A stretch of DNA of 32,000 nucleotides from Nitrosospira multiformis ATCC 25196 (GTDB taxonomy: Bacteria; Pseudomonadota; Gammaproteobacteria; Burkholderiales; Nitrosomonadaceae). The notes below the pieces were generated by a model. That model saw only the letters and a list, made by a program, of their open reading frames with translations. It had not been told where the DNA came from and did not search any database. Below, piece by piece: positions 2,655 through 20,788 of the stretch. Each line of letters starts with the position of its first letter. Positions within the stretch are counted from its first letter, which is position 1. Made by a program: the position numbers and the translations under genes. The DNA is taken from NCBI RefSeq assembly GCF_000196355.1, contig NC_007614.1, forward strand, positions 60,001-92,000, given 5' to 3'.

Positions 2655-3260
2655 TTAAAAAGGTGGATACACTCCTGTATCCCCCTTTCGAGCTGGTTTT
2701 TGCGATTGTACAGCGGTGTGCACCACTCCAGCATCAGTTAGCCCGGTCTCGATCTGGTCAATTTGTGCTTGGAGACTGGTATTTTCGGCCATAAGATTAT
2801 TTATTTCTGTCATCCGTTTTGGCATCGCAGGTCCAACAATGGTCGGGTATTCCATTTCTTGTACCGCTTTCCGCAGGCCTGCCTTTAGCTGGTCGCCCAG
2901 CATCCAAAATAATGCTACTTCGAGGTCATATACAGTAGCTTCATGATGGTCGTGTTCGCATGCTGTCAGGATTTTAAGCCCCCCCACTTTCCCTCTGTCT
3001 CCGACATAGTTGCAACCCGCGTCTTTGCCGTGGCAAGGATTTTTAGTGACAAGCTTCACCGCTTCTGCCAACTTTTGCGGATAGCGGTCTGCAATCCGAT
3101 CCATACGGGCAGCAAGCAGATCCGCCAGTTCTTCGCGAGGCGGAGGGAGGTTTTTGAGTTCCTCGATCCGGAGCTTATTCTTCCCTATTGTTGCCCGCAT
3201 CTTTTGGCACTCGTTACGAGCGTCTTCCAAAGTGCTTTTTACTTTTAACCAATCAAACAT
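2655..3260 (-). CDS. hypothetical protein with heptad-like (coiled-coil-looking) N- and C-terminal segments
   Basis: 201-aa ORF with an AAAGGAA SD, 42 nt downstream of the S49 gene. No family recognised. Confidence 0.6.
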   Translation of the reverse strand: MFDWLKVKSTLEDARNECQKMRATIGKNKLRIEELKNLPPPREELADLLAARMDRIADRYPQKLAEAVKLVTKNPCHGKDAGCNYVGDRGKVGGLKILTACEHDHHEATVYDLEVALFWMLGDQLKAGLRKAVQEMEYPTIVGPAMPKRMTEINNLMAENTSLQAQIDQIETGLTDAGVVHTAVQSQKPARKGDTGVYPPF

Positions 3261-3302: not shown

Positions 3303-4268
3303 TTACACGCGACGTAATATCTTGACGCTGCCTGCCGCAGCTGCGCGCGTGTAGGCCGTGAAGCCCTCGAGTGTCACGAATTCCTCACGAATCTGCGGAT
3401 CATTGCGCCACTGGGCAGCGCAGGATTCTTCCAGGGACATAGATATTTGCTCCTCCTTTTTCGTTGCCCTGGCTGCGCTGGGCATTGCGCCAGACGAAAC
3501 CAGGGTACTTTCAAACGTGCCAATGGCGTCAGCCAGTCCCGCCCTTACTGCCTCAACGCCAACCAATACCCCGCCTTGCCCGAAGTCGGAGTTGACCTTC
3601 ATTTCATTAACTCCGCGATACCGTGCAACCTTCGCGGTAAATACACTGGCAAGACTGTCGATTTCTTTCTGCAGGACCTGGAGCCCCTCAGGGGTCGCCG
3701 GATCAGGTCTTTTCTTGGGTGCATTGGAAGAAACGATCTGATGAAAAATGACTCCCTGCATTTGCTGGCGCGCCTTGTCATCAATGGCTGTGCCAACCAC
3801 CCCGATGCTGCCTACCAGAGCTGTATCGGAAATTGTGATGTGACTGGTAGCGGCTGCCAGCCAGTAAGCAGCGGAAGCTCCCATTCCGGAAACAAAAGAC
3901 TCTATTGGCTTGATGGATCGAGCCGAGAATATTTGGTCCGCCAGCGGAGATACTCCGGATACCACGCCTCCAGGCGAATCAATGTTCAATACGATCTTGT
4001 TAACGGACGAGTCAGCCAAGGCAGCGCTCAGGTCCTGCTGGATGGTTTCCACATCTGTGCCGCCAAAGAGCAGACTGAGGAAGCTTGCGCGTGGCGTGAT
4101 AGGGCCAGTGATATCGATAACTGCCACGCCGTCCTGCGAAACACTTTTGCGTTGGGATGCCGGAAACTTGAGGCCTGGACCGGCAGCGTGTGCGTTTCGG
4201 ATCAGGCTTTCAAAAGTTTCCTTGTGCAATGCCCAGGGGCGGCCAAAGAGTTCAGTATGAAGACTCAT
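3303..4268 (-). CDS. S49-family serine peptidase (SppA / phage prohead protease gpC-like) with a scaffold-like C-terminal tail
   Basis: The sequence NKIVLNIDSPGG...SGMGASAAYWLAAA is typical of the S49/ClpP-fold family. The C-terminal roughly 80 aa is non-protease. The ATGA start/stop overlaps orf291. Confidence 0.75.
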   Translation of the reverse strand: MSLHTELFGRPWALHKETFESLIRNAHAAGPGLKFPASQRKSVSQDGVAVIDITGPITPRASFLSLLFGGTDVETIQQDLSAALADSSVNKIVLNIDSPGGVVSGVSPLADQIFSARSIKPIESFVSGMGASAAYWLAAATSHITISDTALVGSIGVVGTAIDDKARQQMQGVIFHQIVSSNAPKKRPDPATPEGLQVLQKEIDSLASVFTAKVARYRGVNEMKVNSDFGQGGVLVGVEAVRAGLADAIGTFESTLVSSGAMPSAARATKKEEQISMSLEESCAAQWRNDPQIREEFVTLEGFTAYTRAAAAGSVKILRRV

Positions 4269-5140
4269 AAGCTTTTCGCATCCGTAGACATATGCAATCC
4301 GGCTGATCTAAGCGCGTTTTCGATCTGCTCCTGGCTGAGCACGTCAGTAATCAAAGGCGGCAGTTCACCTTTTTCATCATCGCAATCCATGGCTTGGCGA
4401 AGGATGCGGCCATGATAGTCACTAAGATCATGATCATGTCTTGCCTGGAGCTCTTCTGAGCTGCCCCAAGCGTGAAGTGTGAGAACAGCTAGTTTTCCCA
4501 AAATATCCATGTACGATTTTCCTATATGAGTTGAGGGATTGATCGCAGTAGTCGATCGAGGTTGATCGTACGTATCGGCATGGAGGTGCAACAAGATGGA
4601 AGAGGTGCATGAAGCTGCGGCATGTTCCTGCACTATCTTCCTCAGCTGTCGCCAGTCACGAGGCACCATGCCCCCACCGAACTTGAAGGCAAAGAACAAT
4701 GCACGCCGAAAAGGAGTCATATCTTCCGGCGGAAGCGTGCGCTCCTCCAGCTGAGGCCAGAAGACCTCCTGGAAGATGTCAATTTGCTTGCTCAATTCAA
4801 GCCGGCGCTTGTGATCGGTAGGTTCATCAATCAATTCAAACGCACGCACGAGCCAGGTATTCCGTGCTTCGAATCTATCAACAGTTCGCCAATTACGTTG
4901 AGCCGCTGAAGGCGCAAGATTCATCACTTCATCGAGCGTGCGCTTCCCATTCACGTATTCACGGAATTTGGCTCTAACCCACAGAAGAGTTTCCGCAGGA
5001 ACCAATTCGCTATCAGGTGCGGTAAGCGCACGGATGTGTTCCTCTATATCGGGTGGAAGTCCACACTGTCTACCTGGTGGGGTTTCACCTCCCGTTGCCA
5101 GTTGCCTCCAATGATTTGCTTCGATGTGTGACGCACTCAT
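4265..5140 (-). CDS. hypothetical protein (291 aa), translationally coupled to the S49 peptidase
   Basis: Long ORF with a 4-bp overlap with the downstream gene. No family recognised. Confidence 0.6.
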   Translation of the reverse strand: MSASHIEANHWRQLATGGETPPGRQCGLPPDIEEHIRALTAPDSELVPAETLLWVRAKFREYVNGKRTLDEVMNLAPSAAQRNWRTVDRFEARNTWLVRAFELIDEPTDHKRRLELSKQIDIFQEVFWPQLEERTLPPEDMTPFRRALFFAFKFGGGMVPRDWRQLRKIVQEHAAASCTSSILLHLHADTYDQPRSTTAINPSTHIGKSYMDILGKLAVLTLHAWGSSEELQARHDHDLSDYHGRILRQAMDCDDEKGELPPLITDVLSQEQIENALRSAGLHMSTDAKSL

Positions 5141-5534: not shown

Positions 5535-6923
5535 TTTCTTATAAGCGTAATATCTCAATGCCGGTCTCCCGCCTGAGGCGCTATCCTTGCGTTCCTCCGC
5601 CAGTGGAGGCGCAAGGTTGAGCAACACCTCAAGCGCATGCTTCACCTGCTTGATATGCTTGCGGTTCCAGTGATCCTGCAAGGCTGTGAGGGTGATGCCA
5701 GGATTGGAAGTGATTAAGGACAGCACCTCGGCAACGAAAGGATCAATGCCGCCTTCATCATCCTGACAGTTGAAGATGTAGGTGACGCTAGCGTGCCAGT
5801 ACTCCACCCAGGCAATCGCCGCCCAAAGATCGCATGGCTCGATCTCAAGTCTTCCATCCATTGCAGCAAAGATCATGGCGAGCATTCGCGCATACATCTC
5901 AGATCGCGCCAGCAGGCTCCCTCCTTTGCCGTCCCTGTCCCGGGTAAGGCGTGGGTACTGCTCTATCCACAACTCGCGTGCAGCATCGCTCAGACGAACT
6001 TCCCGGGTGTTGTTCCCGTGGAGGTCACCTCCTGTTGCTGCCATTACTGCATCAGCTACGCGCGCCGCCAGCAGGCTCAGTGTTTCTTCAGGTGTGGGCT
6101 CAGGCAGAGGCACCAGCTTAGGGCGATACACGTACAGCATCATGAATCGATTCAGCAGCCCGTTTGCCACCTCGTTATCCGTCGATTTTTCGCGCAGCTC
6201 ATGGCTGGTGATGTGGCCCAGGATAACGACATGAGGCCGCGTGGCCTTGGTCTGATTGGTCTTGGTAAGCGGCTCCATATCCCGGCCATCGAAGAGATTG
6301 CGTATGGTTGCCGACAGTGTGTTGTTGTCGCGGCGCAGCTGCGAGAGCGTGTTGTCCATTTCGCTTTCAATCACCAGCAGGCGCTTATCCGCCACGCCAG
6401 CATCGGCCCCTTTGCCGTTGTCGTCAGCCTCGCGCGGGTCCCGTATCGCCCATGCCACCCCTTCACCAGTGGAAAGACCGCCAGCGTGAATCCGCAGGCG
6501 GTCATTGTTTCCTTGTCGTTTTCTAAGGATTTCATCTGCGCGGCGGAATATCTCACGTACCGTGGTTTCCGCCGTGCCCTTTCTGGCCTTGCCGCTCTTT
6601 CCAACAATGATCTGGAAGGCGCGGCAGTGAATCGAAGCATCTCCGATCTTCTGGAAAATGGAGCGGCCAGTCATCGCACAGAAGAAGGCCAGGACGTTCG
6701 ACGCCACGGCCACCGGATGCGCTTCGCTGTTGGAGCATGCTGCTTCGACGAACTTATGAACAAGAGGGGGGAAACCATCCTCATGCATGCGCGGCGGCGC
6801 CAAGGGAGTGTGAGTTTCAACCAGTTGTGGCCCCGGCAGCTTGCTCGCGCTCGCCTTCGCTGCCACCTTATCGAGGGCAACAGCGCCGCGCTCAATGCTT
6901 TGGGTATCGTCACGAATCGCCAT
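5529..6923 (-). CDS. DUF3987 (YfjI-like) putative replicative helicase / replication initiator
   Basis: 464 aa with a P-loop-like GKSGKARKGTA. The N-terminal FPPLVHKFVEAA region is typical of DUF3987 proteins found next to primases in integrative elements. Confidence 0.65.
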   Translation of the reverse strand: MAIRDDTQSIERGAVALDKVAAKASASKLPGPQLVETHTPLAPPRMHEDGFPPLVHKFVEAACSNSEAHPVAVASNVLAFFCAMTGRSIFQKIGDASIHCRAFQIIVGKSGKARKGTAETTVREIFRRADEILRKRQGNNDRLRIHAGGLSTGEGVAWAIRDPREADDNGKGADAGVADKRLLVIESEMDNTLSQLRRDNNTLSATIRNLFDGRDMEPLTKTNQTKATRPHVVILGHITSHELREKSTDNEVANGLLNRFMMLYVYRPKLVPLPEPTPEETLSLLAARVADAVMAATGGDLHGNNTREVRLSDAARELWIEQYPRLTRDRDGKGGSLLARSEMYARMLAMIFAAMDGRLEIEPCDLWAAIAWVEYWHASVTYIFNCQDDEGGIDPFVAEVLSLITSNPGITLTALQDHWNRKHIKQVKHALEVLLNLAPPLAEERKDSASGGRPALRYYAYKKG

Positions 6924-7335
6924 TGCACACCTCGGTCGCCCTTTGCAATCGTGAAGCAGCCACCAGGAGGCGCTTTCTGTCTTCCTCTGAAAGCTCCACG
7001 CCTTTGGCTACATTCAGTGCCGCTATCGATACCAGGAGTGCTTCGAATGCCAGACAGCGCAAAATGTCGCTTGCATAAAATGGTTTCCGCTCTTTCTGGC
7101 CGCTGTAACCTTCCTGACGCTCTGGAAACAAATCTTCGAGGGAGAGTCCTACTGCCGCGAGAACATTGGAGGTTTCGCATCCCGCGAAGTCATGCAGGAG
7201 CACGCGCCCATCGTCCAGTTCTCTAATCGCGAGAGAGGGCCGTTTATCCCGATGAGCTGGGCAGCGTGCTATCCAGCGACCTCTCCCGGTTTGTTTCACT
7301 CCGTCCAGGCGGTTCAAAAGGGTAGAGGCGCTCAT
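6910..7335 (-). CDS. primase-type zinc-binding domain protein (no catalytic domain recognisable)
   Basis: The WIARCPAHRDKRPSLAIRELDDGRVLLHDFAGC motif (CPxH...H..xxGC) matches the N-terminus of phage and plasmid primases. The protein is only 141 aa. It overlaps both neighbouring genes. Confidence 0.55.
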   Translation of the reverse strand: MSASTLLNRLDGVKQTGRGRWIARCPAHRDKRPSLAIRELDDGRVLLHDFAGCETSNVLAAVGLSLEDLFPERQEGYSGQKERKPFYASDILRCLAFEALLVSIAALNVAKGVELSEEDRKRLLVAASRLQRATEVCNGDS

Positions 7336-7607
7336 GAGCCACCTGCCTTCTGCTGCTCAGCGTCATGCTCATCCAGCAGCGCGCTAGCCTTTTCGATTTG
7401 CTTTATCAGGTTTTGAAGCGTGTAGATAAAACCATATGCCTCCGGGGCGGATAACTCGAGCCTGCTCTCGAGCTCTGCTCTATTGGAGAGCGCTCCGCTC
7501 AGGAACTCAGCCACGTAGGTGGCCTCGCAGAGCATGTCCTGTGCTTCAATGAGTTTGTTGGTGGTAGACGCTTGAAGCGCTACTACTTGTGCGTTTTGCC
7601 TAGCCAT
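7332..7607 (-). CDS. hypothetical protein (91 aa)
   Basis: ORF overlapping both neighbours (operon coupling). No family recognised. Confidence 0.5.
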   Translation of the reverse strand: MARQNAQVVALQASTTNKLIEAQDMLCEATYVAEFLSGALSNRAELESRLELSAPEAYGFIYTLQNLIKQIEKASALLDEHDAEQQKAGGS

Positions 7608-8031
7608 GTTGCACCTCCTTTGAGGTCAACGTAGGAGCACTTTCAGAATCCCTGTCATAGGGCGTAGCTCCAGCTCGAAGTGCACGAAGTCCCACAATGG
7701 CAACGGCAGCCAGGGCTTTTGAGAACCCGCATTCAATCCCCCATCCGGTTGATTTCCAACCGACGTCATTAAAAACGTACTCCAGGGCTAAGCAGGCCTC
7801 GTATTCGTCAACTTCGGCGAGCGCGACAATTTCTGCGAAATATTGCAACCCGATATCAACACCCTCGTGCCAGTACCCTTCTGGATCGTGGGGGACACGC
7901 CAAATGCGCAGAAGATCGTGTTCATCCGGGGCCGCGAAAGAAAGGTCGCTGCGGGACCGGATTGATTTGGCAGGGAGAGGTTGAACAGCTTTGAGATGTG
8001 GCGCGGACGCACCCTTGAATGCCTTAGGCAT
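7600..8031 (-). CDS. hypothetical protein (143 aa); first gene of the replication operon
   Basis: I trimmed the ORF from the track start at 8271 to the ATG at 8031, which is preceded by AAGGAG (8044-8039). The upstream 80 codons span a terminator and hairpins. Confidence 0.55.
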   Translation of the reverse strand: MPKAFKGASAPHLKAVQPLPAKSIRSRSDLSFAAPDEHDLLRIWRVPHDPEGYWHEGVDIGLQYFAEIVALAEVDEYEACLALEYVFNDVGWKSTGWGIECGFSKALAAVAIVGLRALRAGATPYDRDSESAPTLTSKEVQHG

Positions 8032-8038
8032 AGCAAGA

Positions 8039-8127
8039 CTCCTTTGTAAGCGGTTGATGTTCTCCGCTTCCCCGACGCCAATCGGGTGGGCGGAATCGTG
8101 CGAGTTGGCGTACCGGACAAAGGAACC
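8039..8127 (-). promoter_or_regulatory. structured 5' leader with SD-proximal motif copy (D) and antisense copy (M)
   Basis: Read in the RNA sense, M is GGUUCCUUUGUCCGGUACGCCAACUCG (8127-8101). D is a hairpin CCCGA-UUGGCG-UCGGG (8086-8071), then a hairpin at 8069-8048, then ACAAAGGAG (8047-8039), which contains the SD. Confidence 0.5.
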
Positions 8128-8190
8128 GGCGAGCCCGAAGGCTCCCCACACGACCCGCCCGTAAAAAGGGCTTGCCGTACAACGGACGTA

Positions 8191-8216
8191 AAATAAAAAA
8201 ACCGCCAAGAGGCGGT
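8191..8216 (-). terminator. rho-independent terminator (conditional?)
   Basis: The minus-strand stem is ACCGCC-UCUU-GGCGGU (8216-8201), followed by U8 (8200-8193). An upstream AGGCGG (8227-8222) can pair with the same CCGCCU instead. Confidence 0.7.
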
Positions 8217-8269
8217 TGTGTCCGCCTTTGTACCGAGACGCCAATCTCGACCACTGAATTTGCAGTGGC
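8191..8269 (-). ncRNA. candidate ~78-nt terminated leader transcript / small RNA
   Basis: It lies between a sigma70-like promoter and an intrinsic terminator. It contains hairpins CCACUG-CAAAUU-CAGUGG (8268-8251) and CGAGA-UUGGCG-UCUCG (8249-8234), followed by ACAAAGG. Confidence 0.4.
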
Positions 8270-8275
8270 AAGCAA

Positions 8276-8305
8276 AGGATAAGCCCGAGCGAATGCGAAT
8301 GTCAA
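8276..8305 (-). promoter_or_regulatory. sigma70-like promoter of the leader/replication operon
   Basis: On the minus strand there is TTGACA (8305-8300), an 18-nt spacer, and TATCCT (8281-8276). Confidence 0.45.
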
Positions 8306-8318
8306 GGGCTGGCAGGGG

Positions 8319-8552
8319 CTAATCACCATTGCCAGCACCTTTCAAGATGCGACGTTCTTCAGCCCGCTCATCCAAATGAGCCAACAAGGCTATTCCGACA
8401 ACAAGTACGGGATGCTTTTTGATTATTTCCTCTGGTGATTCCCGTAGGCCAAGCTCGCCAGCTATGACCTGTGCTGCCTCCCAAAGCTGGTTGCTGGCAT
8501 ACTCAAGACCATCAGCCCGCAGCTTGTTGTAATCGATCTCAGGGCCGCTCAT
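8319..8552 (-). CDS. hypothetical protein (77 aa)
   Basis: ORF with an ATGA overlap with alpA. No family recognised. Confidence 0.5.
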   Translation of the reverse strand: MSGPEIDYNKLRADGLEYASNQLWEAAQVIAGELGLRESPEEIIKKHPVLVVGIALLAHLDERAEERRILKGAGNGD

Positions 8553-8803
8553 TGTGCTGTCCCTTGCAGCGAAGCCAGTACTTTTCTGAGTTTGCCAACG
8601 TTCCAGAATGTCATCCTGCCCAGCTTGGTGGGCTGCGGGAGAGTGCCGTCATTCACGCGCCGCCAGACCGTGGCATCGGAGCAGTTGAGAAGCCCCTTTA
8701 AAACTGGCTGGCGAACGTTGGCAGAATCGGGGAGTGAATCGAAGTGCTTGAGGGCATCAGGAATAACGTCTTCCTGCTTTACCCTTTTGCTCTGTTGAGG
8801 CAT
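8549..8803 (-). CDS. alpA: AlpA-family transcriptional regulator / excisionase-type HTH
   Basis: 84 aa. The segment LLNCSDATVWRRVNDGTLPQPTKLGRMTFWNVGKL matches the AlpA/MerR-type phage regulator pattern. Confidence 0.8.
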   Translation of the reverse strand: MPQQSKRVKQEDVIPDALKHFDSLPDSANVRQPVLKGLLNCSDATVWRRVNDGTLPQPTKLGRMTFWNVGKLRKVLASLQGTAQ

Positions 8804-8809
8804 GGTAGG

Positions 8810-8845
8810 TTTCTCCTTGATATGTTCTGAATGAACAAGGAGAAA
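8810..8845 (-). promoter_or_regulatory. SD-sequestering hairpin in the alpA 5' UTR
   Basis: A perfect 10-bp inverted repeat TTTCTCCTTG / CAAGGAGAAA (8810-8819 / 8836-8845) has a 16-nt loop. In the mRNA the 3' arm carries the AAGGAG SD, 9 nt from the ATG. Confidence 0.5.
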
Positions 8846-8915
8846 TCTACCGGCTTGGGATAGAGCTTTGTCCGATCGGTTTAATTTAAAGCCGATTCGG
8901 TTTTGATACGAGGAC

Positions 8916-9539
8916 TTATGCGCCTTTGAAGGGAATTCTTGTTGCTGCTTCTCTCAGGTATGCGAGTACCGTTTCCTCACTGATTTTAATGCCAACTATT
9001 TCAAGATCCCGCTTGATCACCCCGGGTACGGCACTCTTCTTTGCTTCGGGATCGTACTTATACTTTTTTACTGCTATCCCAAGCACTATTTTTAACAAGC
9101 TCGTTCTCGCACTGTCTGGAAGATTATCTTGCTGGCCTGTATCGTTTACCGTAAATATTGACAAAAGCTTGCGTTCTTCCTCCGAAATGCATTCCACATA
9201 GCTTTTTATGAAATGAGGTAAATCAGCTTCCAGAACGGCAAGTCTTTCTTTCATCGATTCCCGTAATCCTTCCTCTTCAGTATGTTGAATTTTCCAAGCA
9301 GCAAACCCACATAATCCTAACTTCCACAGCACACTTGCAGCCCTGCGCTGCCTGGTGGTCATGTTTATGTGCTCGGGTTCAGAGGACAGGTTCAATTTCT
9401 TGCCAATCTTGCAGTCAATTTCGCTGATGGTCACTTTATTGGTGTTGTATAAATTTGGCGGTATAAAATCAGCCAGATCTCGTCGCGCCATTTCTCGCAC
9501 TTCCAACATATCCCAACTTTTCTTATCCCAGCTGCTCAT
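8916..9539 (-). CDS. hypothetical protein (207 aa), AT-rich cargo or regulator
   Basis: Long ORF between int and alpA. It looks AT-richer than its neighbours by eye. No family recognised. Confidence 0.55.
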   Translation of the reverse strand: MSSWDKKSWDMLEVREMARRDLADFIPPNLYNTNKVTISEIDCKIGKKLNLSSEPEHINMTTRQRRAASVLWKLGLCGFAAWKIQHTEEEGLRESMKERLAVLEADLPHFIKSYVECISEEERKLLSIFTVNDTGQQDNLPDSARTSLLKIVLGIAVKKYKYDPEAKKSAVPGVIKRDLEIVGIKISEETVLAYLREAATRIPFKGA

Positions 9540-9639
9540 TTCCCACTTCCTTCCAAGCGTATCCCTTCAAATTGGTTGCCACCCCAGGCGGTGAAGGTTT
9601 CCGTTTTTCTCCTGGCCTGGATAGGGGTGGCTTAACAGT

Positions 9640-10902
9640 TTATTGTTTTGTTGCTACGGCACGCCTGATCGGCACAACCTTATCAGCCTCGCCCCGCTCG
9701 ATCTGGAGCAACAGTCCCGCCCAGGCCTCCAGTGCCGCCTTGCGTTCTTCAAAGTAGTCGTGCCGGTTATAGATGCCCTCGATCCCCTTGATCTTGTGAT
9801 TCAGGCAACGCTCGGCAATGTGAGGGGCAACGCCCAGGGCTTCGAAATGCGTACGCGCAGTACGGCGTAGATCATGGATAGTGAAGGGTTCCAGGCCGTG
9901 CTTGATCTTTGCCAGAGCCACGCTCAGCGTGCTTTCCGCAATATGTGGAATCATCCGATCCTGCATCTTGCGAGCCGGCAACACCCACTTGCTAACACCC
10001 GCCAGGCGCTGCAACTCGCGCAGCCACTCTACTGCAATCGGAGGCAAGGGTATGTCAATGGCAGATTCGGTTTTCGTGCGTTCGGCAGGCAGATACCAGA
10101 CAGCTTTATCCAGGTCGAACTCAGACCACCTGGCGCCGATCAGCTCACCCTTTCGCACCGCAAGCAGTAATAGCAGTTTGATGCTCAAGCCGTTCTCCAC
10201 ACTGAAACCAGGTGCTTGCCGCATTGCTTCAAAGAGCGTGACCAGCTCCTCGCTGGTCAACCAGCGCGTCCGGCTTTTCTCCTTGCCGCCAGCGTCACCT
10301 GGATCAAATGCAGCCGCGGGATTGTATTCGATGATGTGGCGCTTGATAGCATAGTTGAACATGCGCTTAAGCCAGCGCAGTGTATCGTTCGCTATGGAAG
10401 GCGCACCCCGTTTCATTACAGCCTTGAGCACATCATCAATATGCCTGGGCTTTACATCCTCAACCTTCAAGCTGCCAATCGCGGGCTTGATGTCTTTCTC
10501 GATCCTGGATCGTACGATGTTTGGGTGCTTCCATCGCCCTGCAATCATCCTTTCAAAATATTCGTCGGCCAGCTGCGCCACGGTGTACGCATTCTTCTCC
10601 GCTTCTATCCTGGCAATGGCTTCGCCCTTGCGCTGCTGTTTTTCTCCGGCCACGTCGTAGCCCAAAGCAACGCGAGCGGACAGCTTCTTGGCTTCATCCC
10701 TGGCATCCGCCAGGGATAGCGTACCGTAACTGCCAATATTCATAACGCGGCGCTTGCCACAAAAACGGTATCTGAAACGCCAGATAGGAATGGCATAACC
10801 TTCACGAAAACTCAGATATAGGCCACCACCTACAGCACGGCCTTCAAACCGTTCGCCCGCCTTGATCCAGTTGCGGATCTCCATGTCTGTTAGCTTAGCC
10901 AT
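9640..10902 (-). CDS. int: tyrosine-type site-specific integrase (P4/CP4-57 type, DUF4102 N-terminus)
   Basis: 420 aa. The N-terminal LTDMEIRNWIKAGERF...GGLYLSF is typical of the family, and the C-terminal catalytic pattern HDLRRTART...LNH...GIYNRHDY is present. Confidence 0.92.
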   Translation of the reverse strand: MAKLTDMEIRNWIKAGERFEGRAVGGGLYLSFREGYAIPIWRFRYRFCGKRRVMNIGSYGTLSLADARDEAKKLSARVALGYDVAGEKQQRKGEAIARIEAEKNAYTVAQLADEYFERMIAGRWKHPNIVRSRIEKDIKPAIGSLKVEDVKPRHIDDVLKAVMKRGAPSIANDTLRWLKRMFNYAIKRHIIEYNPAAAFDPGDAGGKEKSRTRWLTSEELVTLFEAMRQAPGFSVENGLSIKLLLLLAVRKGELIGARWSEFDLDKAVWYLPAERTKTESAIDIPLPPIAVEWLRELQRLAGVSKWVLPARKMQDRMIPHIAESTLSVALAKIKHGLEPFTIHDLRRTARTHFEALGVAPHIAERCLNHKIKGIEGIYNRHDYFEERKAALEAWAGLLLQIERGEADKVVPIRRAVATKQ

Positions 10903-10935
10903 CTCTACTCACTGTTCAGGATTTAAGTTTTTTTA

Positions 10936-11035
10936 GGGGTACCCGGCATATCACGTAAACCCGCCTGTATCGGGCTTCTCGCTGGGTACACGTAAAAACC
11001 TGATAATTTCAGCGTATGTACCCTTATATGTACCC
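10936..11035 (+). repeat. four KGTACMC motifs (10938 GGTACCC, 10985 GGTACAC, 11017 TGTACCC, 11029 TGTACCC); candidate arm-type sites at the int-proximal end
   Basis: All are in the same orientation as the two left-end copies. CACGTAAA is also repeated (10952, 10989). Confidence 0.4.
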
Positions 11036-20714: not shown

Positions 20715-20788
20715 GCGGGTGTAGCTCAATGGCAGAGCAGAAGCTTCCCAAGCTTACGACGAGGGTTCGATTCCCTTCACCCGCTCCA
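20715..20788 (+). tRNA. tRNA-Gly (anticodon CCC)
   Basis: 74 nt with acceptor stem GCGGGTG/CACCCGC, D arm GCTC/GAGC, anticodon loop TTCCCAA, T arm GAGGG-TTCGATT-CCCTT and an encoded CCA. It is close to E. coli glyU as I recall it. Position 27:43 is a G-A mismatch. Confidence 0.92.

Follow-up and report, generated by a model that had tools for sequence, protein, structure and literature searches.

A predicted P4-type immunity leader with a putative antisense-controlled antiterminator/terminator switch in an integrated element of Nitrosospira multiformis

The immunity region of phage P4 is organized as seqA-t1-CI-seqC: the target of the CI antisense RNA is duplicated, before and after the RNA itself, the first target is separated from the RNA gene by an intrinsic terminator (t1), and the regulator RNA, which is matured by RNase P/PNPase, arises from read-through only. 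According to an account attributed to Briani et al. 2000 (Mol Microbiol 36:1124), efficient termination at t1 reportedly needs both CI RNA and seqA, in vitro too, and t1 serves CI autoregulation. IsrK and C4 are structural homologs of P4 seqA and CI RNA (PMC3632133), their Rfam profiles pick up seqA/CI relatives in satellites (PMC10111431), and CI, when bound to seqA, governs early termination (PMC10111431, PMC4825925). We analyzed a 32,000-nt stretch of the Nitrosospira multiformis ATCC 25196 genome (NC_007614.1, positions 60,001 to 92,000), referred to below as the window; window coordinates are used throughout, and the elements were read on the minus strand with a consensus scan. As judged from its sequence, a short region downstream of a small open reading frame (ORF), orf77, represents the leader of an RNA immunity system of the P4 type (seqA-t1-CI-seqC, IsrK/C4 family) in an integrated P4-like element.

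In pT181 and in pIP501/pAMbeta1, pairing of an antisense RNA with the nascent leader blocks a pre-emptor (antiterminator) helix, and an intrinsic terminator then forms upstream of the replication gene. In Salmonella, IsrK accumulates as a terminated small RNA (sRNA) while part of the transcripts pass the terminator, and the short IsrK binds the read-through isrK-orf45-anrP RNA, turning translation on; a stable RNA encoded downstream has been suggested to modulate the IsrK terminator (PMC4825925). In the heteroimmunity of P1 and P7, a few loop bases set the specificity (PMC12197685).

An Rfam scan of the whole window placed a full-length match to isrK (RF01394, model positions 1-77 of 77) on the minus strand, with 63.4 bits against a gathering score of 50. 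The corresponding IsrK/seqA-type leader RNA is 75 nt long (8269-8195) and contains what defines the isrK family, two 5' hairpins and a Rho-independent terminator with a U-run, together with a linker that bears the first target of the antisense RNA (a1). Hairpin 1 (GCCACUG/CAGUGGU, loop CAAAUU, 8269-8250) has a CCACUG/CAGUGG core at 8268-8251, reaches 7 bp with the G8269-U8250 pair, and is the first helix in the consensus of both isrK and c4-a1b1. Hairpin 2 (CGAGA/UCUCG, 8249-8234), seen in both the fold and the Rfam model, carries a second target (b1) in its loop. The intrinsic terminator, AACCGCC-UCUU-GGCGGUU followed by U7 (8217-8195), has a hairpin energy of -11.5 kcal/mol and is the counterpart of P4 t1. 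The fold of the 75-nt RNA as a whole had a z-score of -2.9. A sequence-only reading of this DNA had described the two 5' hairpins and the terminator and had proposed a candidate sRNA or attenuator; the hairpins lie where it put them, hairpin 1 being one pair longer, and the terminator is present as well, although its run of U residues was overcounted, comprising seven (8201-8195, counted from U8201) rather than eight, followed by A and then UUU. A weak Rfam match to Hrs13 (15.5 bits vs 52) covered the terminator only and was dismissed.

The promoter expected upstream of this RNA, also part of the sequence-only reading, was found as proposed: a -35 hexamer TTGACA (8305-8300, minus strand), an 18-nt spacer and a -10 hexamer TATCCT (8281-8276), with 13 nt separating the -35 from the TAG that ends orf77 (8321-8319, minus strand). 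It scored 10/12 in the consensus scan, was the sole promoter-like site within 6500-10500, and is the counterpart of the P4 PLE promoter. Transcription is inferred to start near G8269, as indicated by the -10 hexamer and by the isrK model, whose first position (8269) coincides with the start that the hexamer predicts.

About 30 nt downstream of the leader and on the same strand, a C4/CI-type antisense RNA (8166-8082) matched the Rfam C4 model (RF01695) over its full length, with 70 bits against a gathering score of 45. Its loop CCUUUGU (a', 8123-8117) is complementary over 7 nt to a1, ACAAAGG (8231-8225), and its segment CGCCAA (b', 8110-8105) faces two copies of UUGGCG: b1 (8244-8239) in the loop of hairpin 2, and b2 (8081-8076) in the loop of a hairpin that follows the C4 RNA (CCCGA-UUGGCG-UCGGG, 8086-8071). 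The remaining target, a2 (ACAAAGGAG, 8047-8039, core 8047-8041), extends the complementarity to the C4 loop to 8 nt and occupies the Shine-Dalgarno region of ORF143, whose ATG is at 8031-8029. Three of the four copies of ACAAAGG in the window fall inside the 190 nt that hold a1, a' and a2, and the window has just two copies of the 10-mer GATTGGCGTC, one at b1 (within hairpin 2) and the other at b2. The sequence-only reading had named a1, a2 and a' as copies U and D and a segment M, and had proposed that an M-containing RNA acts on U; such an RNA is thus in place as the C4/CI-type RNA, with M as its loop, while the known P4 seqA-CI-seqC/P1 c4 arrangement and the second complementary pair, b1/b', had been overlooked. 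The consensus scan gave no promoter-like site between the terminator and the C4 RNA. Lacking a promoter-like site of its own, the C4 RNA would be producible by read-through only, and the terminator upstream of it must then be leaky or regulated.

Two further sequences in the window resemble parts of this system. The nonamer ACAAAGGAA at 3277-3269 (minus strand) is a perfect 9-nt complement to the C4 loop (UUCCUUUGU), longer than the complementarity of a1 or a2, and lies in the Shine-Dalgarno position, 8 nt before the ATG at 3260, of the ORF at 2655-3260 (minus strand). A b-type site was not found near 3277-3269, and the nonamer is a candidate for a further, third target of C4 in another part of the element. 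The heptamer CCTTTGC (8278-8272, minus strand), which overlaps the -10 hexamer at its 3' end and runs just beyond it, resembles the C4 loop and could mask a1 in cis were transcription to begin further upstream. This likeness is probably coincidental, since the Pseudomonas phage relative lacks CCTTTGC.

The arrangement was compared with phage P4 (NC_001609) itself. There, seqA/t1 (8692-8615) matched isrK with 60.8 bits, with the equivalent of the terminator at 8636-8615, and CI RNA (8507-8420) matched C4 with 74.9 bits. Both loci share the order excisionase-like ORF, promoter, isrK, C4, ORFs and primase/helicase, with the PLE promoter of P4 at the equivalent position. They also share the duplicated target on either side of the antisense RNA and the intrinsic terminator between the first target and the RNA gene. 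Supply of the regulator RNA from read-through only is common to both as well, being predicted for the window, where replication genes follow the unit and the element is satellite-like and bears an integrase. Target and loop sequences are not those of P4, implying another immunity specificity; the first ORFs downstream are not related to any known family, and the host is non-enterobacterial by composition and neighboring genes.

Likeness extends to P1/P7 immI, in which an RNA of the C4 family is released by processing of the very transcript that carries its targets (predicted for the window), two-part a/b targets occur twice, and a2 lies at a ribosome-binding site (RBS). The Rfam model of this type, c4-a1b1 (RF03163), matched window positions 8282-8230 with 43.6 bits, just below its cutoff of 46.7, and P4 also fell short (44.1 bits). 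The c4-a1b1 model has no terminator after a1/b1, unlike the window, a statement about the model rather than about P1/P7 itself. The antirepressor that characterizes P1/P7 immI was not found downstream in the window, where primase-like genes follow ORF143 and ORF91, although two of the phage relatives described below (L001 and L002) do bear antirepressors.

Relatives were collected in two ways. BLAST against phage sequences returned 22 records from phages of Pseudomonas aeruginosa and Bordetella avium, and a C4-hairpin pattern with 17 specified bases was scanned over viral and genome collections. The raw pattern matches included many chance matches in unrelated phyla and were set aside as a source of relatives; an nhmmer profile was used to pick the true ones. 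It selected at least 55 unique units, from beta- and gammaproteobacteria and their phages, and the counts given below are among the matches listed. A TTGAC -35 element stood at a constant distance from hairpin 2 (-55 to -58) in 22 of 39 non-redundant relatives, and the helix of hairpin 2 showed double changes at four of its five pairs. Since this distance is fixed and the leader matches a curated family over its full length, the promoter and leader together stand out from chance.

The a1/a'/a2 and b1/b'/b2 sequences changed together across the relatives, a three-way covariation. Thus, the window has ACAAAGG/CCUUUGU with UUGGCG/CGCCAA, the Pseudomonas phages have CUGAAGG/CCUUCAG with UUGGCC/GGCCAA, and the Bordetella phages have GCUAAGG/CCUUAGC with UUGCAG/CUGCAA; a2 was placed at the RBS in the relatives too. 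At the level of sequence, this covariation marks the a and b triplets as determinants of immunity specificity, comparable to P1 vs P7. Duplex energies of the full-length C4 RNA with the leader or the downstream target (RNAduplex) barely exceeded those of shuffled targets; the method ignores intramolecular structure and was dropped in favor of motif complementarity and covariation. The nearest phage relatives (L001-L004, from Pseudomonas and Bordetella, about 70-73% identity) immediately precede antirepressor genes, as in P1 immI, and in most phage records the matching unit lies in unannotated intergenic DNA. A metagenome-assembled contig of the Burkholderiaceae (L115) carries two IsrK-C4 units, at 388-626 and 4771-5003, as do contigs L100, L009 and L134, again a few kb apart. 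The two units of L115 have identical a sequences (ACAAAGG) and different b sequences (UUGGCG vs UUUGACAG), which suggests that a and b target modules can be exchanged independently.

The linker between hairpin 2 and the terminator is predicted to form a hairpin of its own, AGGCGG-ACACAA-CCGCCU (8227-8210, minus strand), whose 5' arm shares AGG with a1. When the segments of this antiterminator and of the terminator are considered together (AGGCGG 8227-8222, ACCGCC 8216-8211, CCGCCU 8215-8210 and GGCGGU 8206-8201, all minus strand), the middle one is common to the two hairpins, which therefore exclude each other. In the 75-nt RNA, the minimum free energy (MFE) fold (-27.8 kcal/mol) held the antiterminator and the centroid (-27.0 kcal/mol) held the terminator, whereas direct evaluation gave -27.0 kcal/mol for the terminator fold and -26.1 kcal/mol for the antiterminator fold. 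Pair probabilities were likewise balanced, with P(terminator) 0.565 and P(antiterminator) 0.435. In the nascent 63-nt RNA, before the 3' arm of the terminator is made, the MFE fold was the antiterminator, with a z-score of -3.9, and the antiterminator hairpin (-9.7 kcal/mol) was more stable than those of shuffled linkers (-2.0 +/- 2.7 kcal/mol). Barring a1 from pairing, which mimics bound C4, raised P(terminator) from 0.565 to 1.0 in silico. The sequence-only reading had located these four segments and the AGG overlap correctly, and its proposals of mutually exclusive hairpins and of pairing with copy U favoring termination both agree with these folds, the latter in silico only. Its description as a candidate sRNA or attenuator is likewise supported, at the level of sequence, by the IsrK/seqA-family match and the balanced alternative folds.

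A further partner for the 5' arm lies just past the U-run. In the MFE fold of a 250-nt read-through RNA, GUCCGUU (8187-8181, minus strand) paired with GGCGGAC (8226-8220), which overlaps the antiterminator 5' arm; this helix would enclose the terminator hairpin. Pairing of this type, with at least 5 bp, was present in 24 of 29 relatives and showed compensatory changes, e.g., GGCCGAC/GUCGGUC and GCGCGCAG/UUGCGCGC. The same 250-nt fold paired b1-a1 with a'-b' in cis and retained the terminator hairpin.

The antiterminator region is an unpaired linker in the Rfam isrK consensus, where the hairpin is not annotated. In the relatives, a hairpin starting from the GG of a1 and overlapping the terminator 5' arm by 3-6 nt was found in about 40 of 44 unique sequences, with the variants AGGCGG/CCGCCU, AGGCGG/CCGCUU, GGCGGA/UCCGCC, GGCGC/GCGCC, GGCC/GGCC and AGGCG/CGCCU. 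When each linker was shuffled 500 times, the median fraction of shuffles attaining the observed hairpin energy was 0.05. An alignment of 27 sequences (A2) had the antiterminator helix 79.6% paired, against 35-44% with the partner columns slid, and contained two pairs altered on both sides (GGCGG/CCGCC to GGCGC/GCGCC, and GGCC/GGCC). For folding, each relative's RNA was started at hairpin 2. Masking a1 lifted the median P(terminator) from 0.66 to 1.0, with a gain above 0.1 in 20 of 31 relatives, and in 29 of 31 the MFE fold of the nascent RNA sequestered 3 nt or more of the terminator arm; P(terminator) at equilibrium was already at least 0.9 in 11 of the 31.

A P4-type leader with a C4-controlled antiterminator/terminator switch is the best explanation of these observations, and we consider it probably correct. 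A sigma-70-type promoter (8305-8276) would drive transcription from near 8269, and the nascent RNA would fold into two hairpins and then the AGGCGG/CCGCCU hairpin, which would sequester the 5' arm of the terminator and let a fraction of polymerases read through. Polymerases would reach the C4/CI-type RNA (8166-8082) and the replication genes by this read-through alone. Mature C4 would pair with a1 (ACAAAGG) and b1 (UUGGCG) on new leaders, and because a1 pairing would invade the AGG of the antiterminator arm, the shared segment would be freed, the terminator would form, and transcription would stop at 8195 with release of the 75-nt IsrK-like RNA. By pairing with b2 and a2 over the RBS of ORF143, C4 would also block transcripts that had escaped. 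The net outcome would be self-limiting C4 synthesis (feedback), repression of the replication genes and sequence-specific immunity. This scheme agrees with what Briani et al. are said to have described for t1.

Broader and less certain, with about an even chance of being right, is the proposal that this construction characterizes a large IsrK/seqA-C4 subfamily of beta- and gammaproteobacteria and of Pseudomonas and Bordetella phages. In its members, the first target would be fused to a three-part switch (antiterminator 5' arm, shared middle and terminator 3' arm) whose 5' segment has a fourth partner past the U-run, and the element's own antisense RNA would convert read-through to termination; the window would have in addition a third C4 target at the RBS of ORF 2655-3260. 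A strong, covarying antiterminator is a mechanistic detail absent from the Rfam annotation, although it may have been discussed in the primary P4 papers.

The logic is that of pT181 and pIP501/pAMbeta1, in that mutually exclusive helices are predicted in the nascent leader and are conserved in relatives. In contrast to those systems, whose antisense RNAs come from the opposite strand of the leader, the regulator in the window lies downstream on the same strand and has short loop complementarity; the consensus scan found no plus-strand promoter-like site at the leader, and the families are unrelated in sequence.

Several observations weigh against a C4-controlled switch. P4 is the only relative with published termination experiments, and there the unmasked P(terminator) was already 0.97 and the competing hairpin was weak (-3.9 kcal/mol with a 2-nt overlap, compared to -9.7 kcal/mol and 5 nt in the window); given this weakness, C4/CI-dependent termination may work by another route. 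The sequence AAGG of a1 dictates the first two pairs of the antiterminator, so that changes on both sides were limited to two pairs of its helix, and shuffle tests of single relatives were modest (fractions 0.00-0.28). Equilibrium folding leaves out transcription kinetics, Hfq and RNases. Conservation of GGCGGAC may be due in part to its helix with the segment past the U-run, e.g., in precursor processing. The last point, the weak P4 hairpin and the 11 relatives whose terminator already dominates at equilibrium all speak for an upstream hairpin that is merely structural and a terminator that is constitutively leaky, AGGCGG being kept for the long-range helix with GUCCGUU (which might, for example, serve processing that releases C4) or for presentation of a1. 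Such an account would draw on the covariation of the long-range pairing in 24 of 29 relatives and its presence in the read-through fold, yet we judge it improbable. In nearly all relatives the upstream hairpin has a 3' arm that shares 3-6 nt with the terminator 5' arm and covaries with both partners (GGCGG/CCGCC/GGCGG, GGCGC/GCGCC/GGCGC, GGCC/GGCC), and the nascent fold pairs at least 3 nt of that arm upstream in 29 of 31. Moreover, a GUCCGUU-type partner is made only after the termination decision and thus could not substitute for the kinetic effect of the upstream hairpin. Least probable by far, in our estimate, is a chance TTGACA/TATCCT pair in front of an ordinary terminator that ends the excisionase-orf77 transcript. 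The terminator does lie about 120 nt past the orf77 stop codon, and the promoter match is undistinctive when taken alone, as the scan found no more sites than in shuffled sequence (mean 2.5 sites per 4 kb). However, chance would leave unexplained why the full-length isrK match starts exactly at the predicted start, why the -35 distance is conserved in relatives with unrelated upstream genes, and why the P4 PLE promoter occupies the same position.

U-rich 3' ends after a terminator hairpin are typical of Hfq-binding sRNAs, and the leader has such an end. This fits the mode of Gifsy-1 IsrK, in which the 75-nt RNA would act mainly in trans, pairing with the C4-like part of the read-through RNA or decoying C4 and thereby activating downstream translation, instead of being the product of a regulated terminator. 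As in the Gifsy-1 IsrK/STnc1160/orf45-anrP system, the leader RNA belongs to the isrK family, a C4-like stable RNA lies downstream, and complementarity exists between the short RNA and the downstream part; Gifsy-1 has short terminated and read-through isoforms, and their counterparts are predicted for the window. The short Salmonella IsrK activates translation via the read-through RNA, and the cis pairing of b1-a1 with a'-b' predicted for the read-through RNA of 250 nt is similar to 'structure A', described there as inactive (PMC4825925). The role demonstrated for Gifsy-1, however, is trans-activation of orf45/antirepressor translation, whereas the genes downstream of the leader are of the P4-like replication type rather than an orf45-antirepressor pair, no coupled small ORF of the orf45 type was identified in the window, and a2 coincides with the Shine-Dalgarno sequence, as would suit repression by C4. 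Nor would a role in trans alone account for the conservation of the overlap between upstream hairpin and terminator arm. We therefore regard a mainly trans-acting RNA as rather unlikely; it is nevertheless compatible with the C4-controlled switch, and both may operate together.

The RNA unit lies in an integrase-bearing island of about 10 kb, between a trxC-like (thioredoxin-2-like) gene and yicC/rph/rdgB. Protein family searches identified the integrase (9640-10902). An excisionase-like ORF (8549-8803) is followed by orf77 and then by the RNA unit, and ORF143 (7600-8031, minus strand) opens the operon that the leader would control; ORF91, the primase-like ORF141 and ORF464 come after it. No Pfam or PHROG match was obtained for ORF143 or ORF91; ORF141 matched phrog_6088 (DNA primase), and ORF464 matched DUF3987 and primase PHROGs. 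The frame of ORF143 stays open upstream across the entire isrK and C4 leader, the mechanically called ORF (7600-8271) starting with TTG at the predicted transcription start site, and the nearest upstream stop in this frame (TGA, 8304-8302) lies within the -35 hexamer. No RBS was evident for the extended frame (7600-8271). The extended frame is reminiscent of P4 eta, which spans cI and is translated solely from an upstream late promoter (PMC10111431).

No direct repeat of at least 12 nt was found at the island ends, and there was no tRNA at the junction. Octamers of the GGGTACAC type occur at both ends (about 690-720 and about 10935-11035), with exact copies at 699, 711 and 10984 and copies with one mismatch at 10937, 11016 and 11028; allowing up to one mismatch, the window contains 24 matches vs 11.4 expected. 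The octamers may be arm sites of the integrase and so mark the borders of the island. An int-alpA RNA motif (RF02996, 55.6 bits, cutoff 35.8) lies at 9564-9631 (minus strand), directly downstream of the integrase and upstream of the ORF at 8916-9539. A gene for tRNA-Gly (anticodon CCC, 20715-20788, plus strand), 10 kb away from the integrase and amid chromosomal genes, is not the attachment site of the island. The island also encodes an S49/ClpP-like peptidase (3303-4268, minus strand; Pfam PF01343, 75 bits), followed by ORFs without family matches.

The antisense-controlled attenuator proposed here would be a well-supported further example of a system that has already been described, and no new kind of biology. 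Its recognition assigns an unannotated stretch of 300 nt to a specific, experimentally studied control system, and it predicts which island genes would be silenced and which 7-nt and 6-nt sequences would determine the specificity. If the third target at the RBS of ORF 2655-3260 is real, control would extend past the replication operon. The three-way covarying hairpins offer a concrete mechanism by which a short antisense RNA could enforce termination at a nearby intrinsic terminator, and, if the reading as a three-part switch is true, they would be the structural basis of antisense-RNA-dependent termination, a basis barely visible in P4. Such a mechanism would be relevant to many mobile elements beyond the enterobacteria, in which P4 and IsrK were studied.

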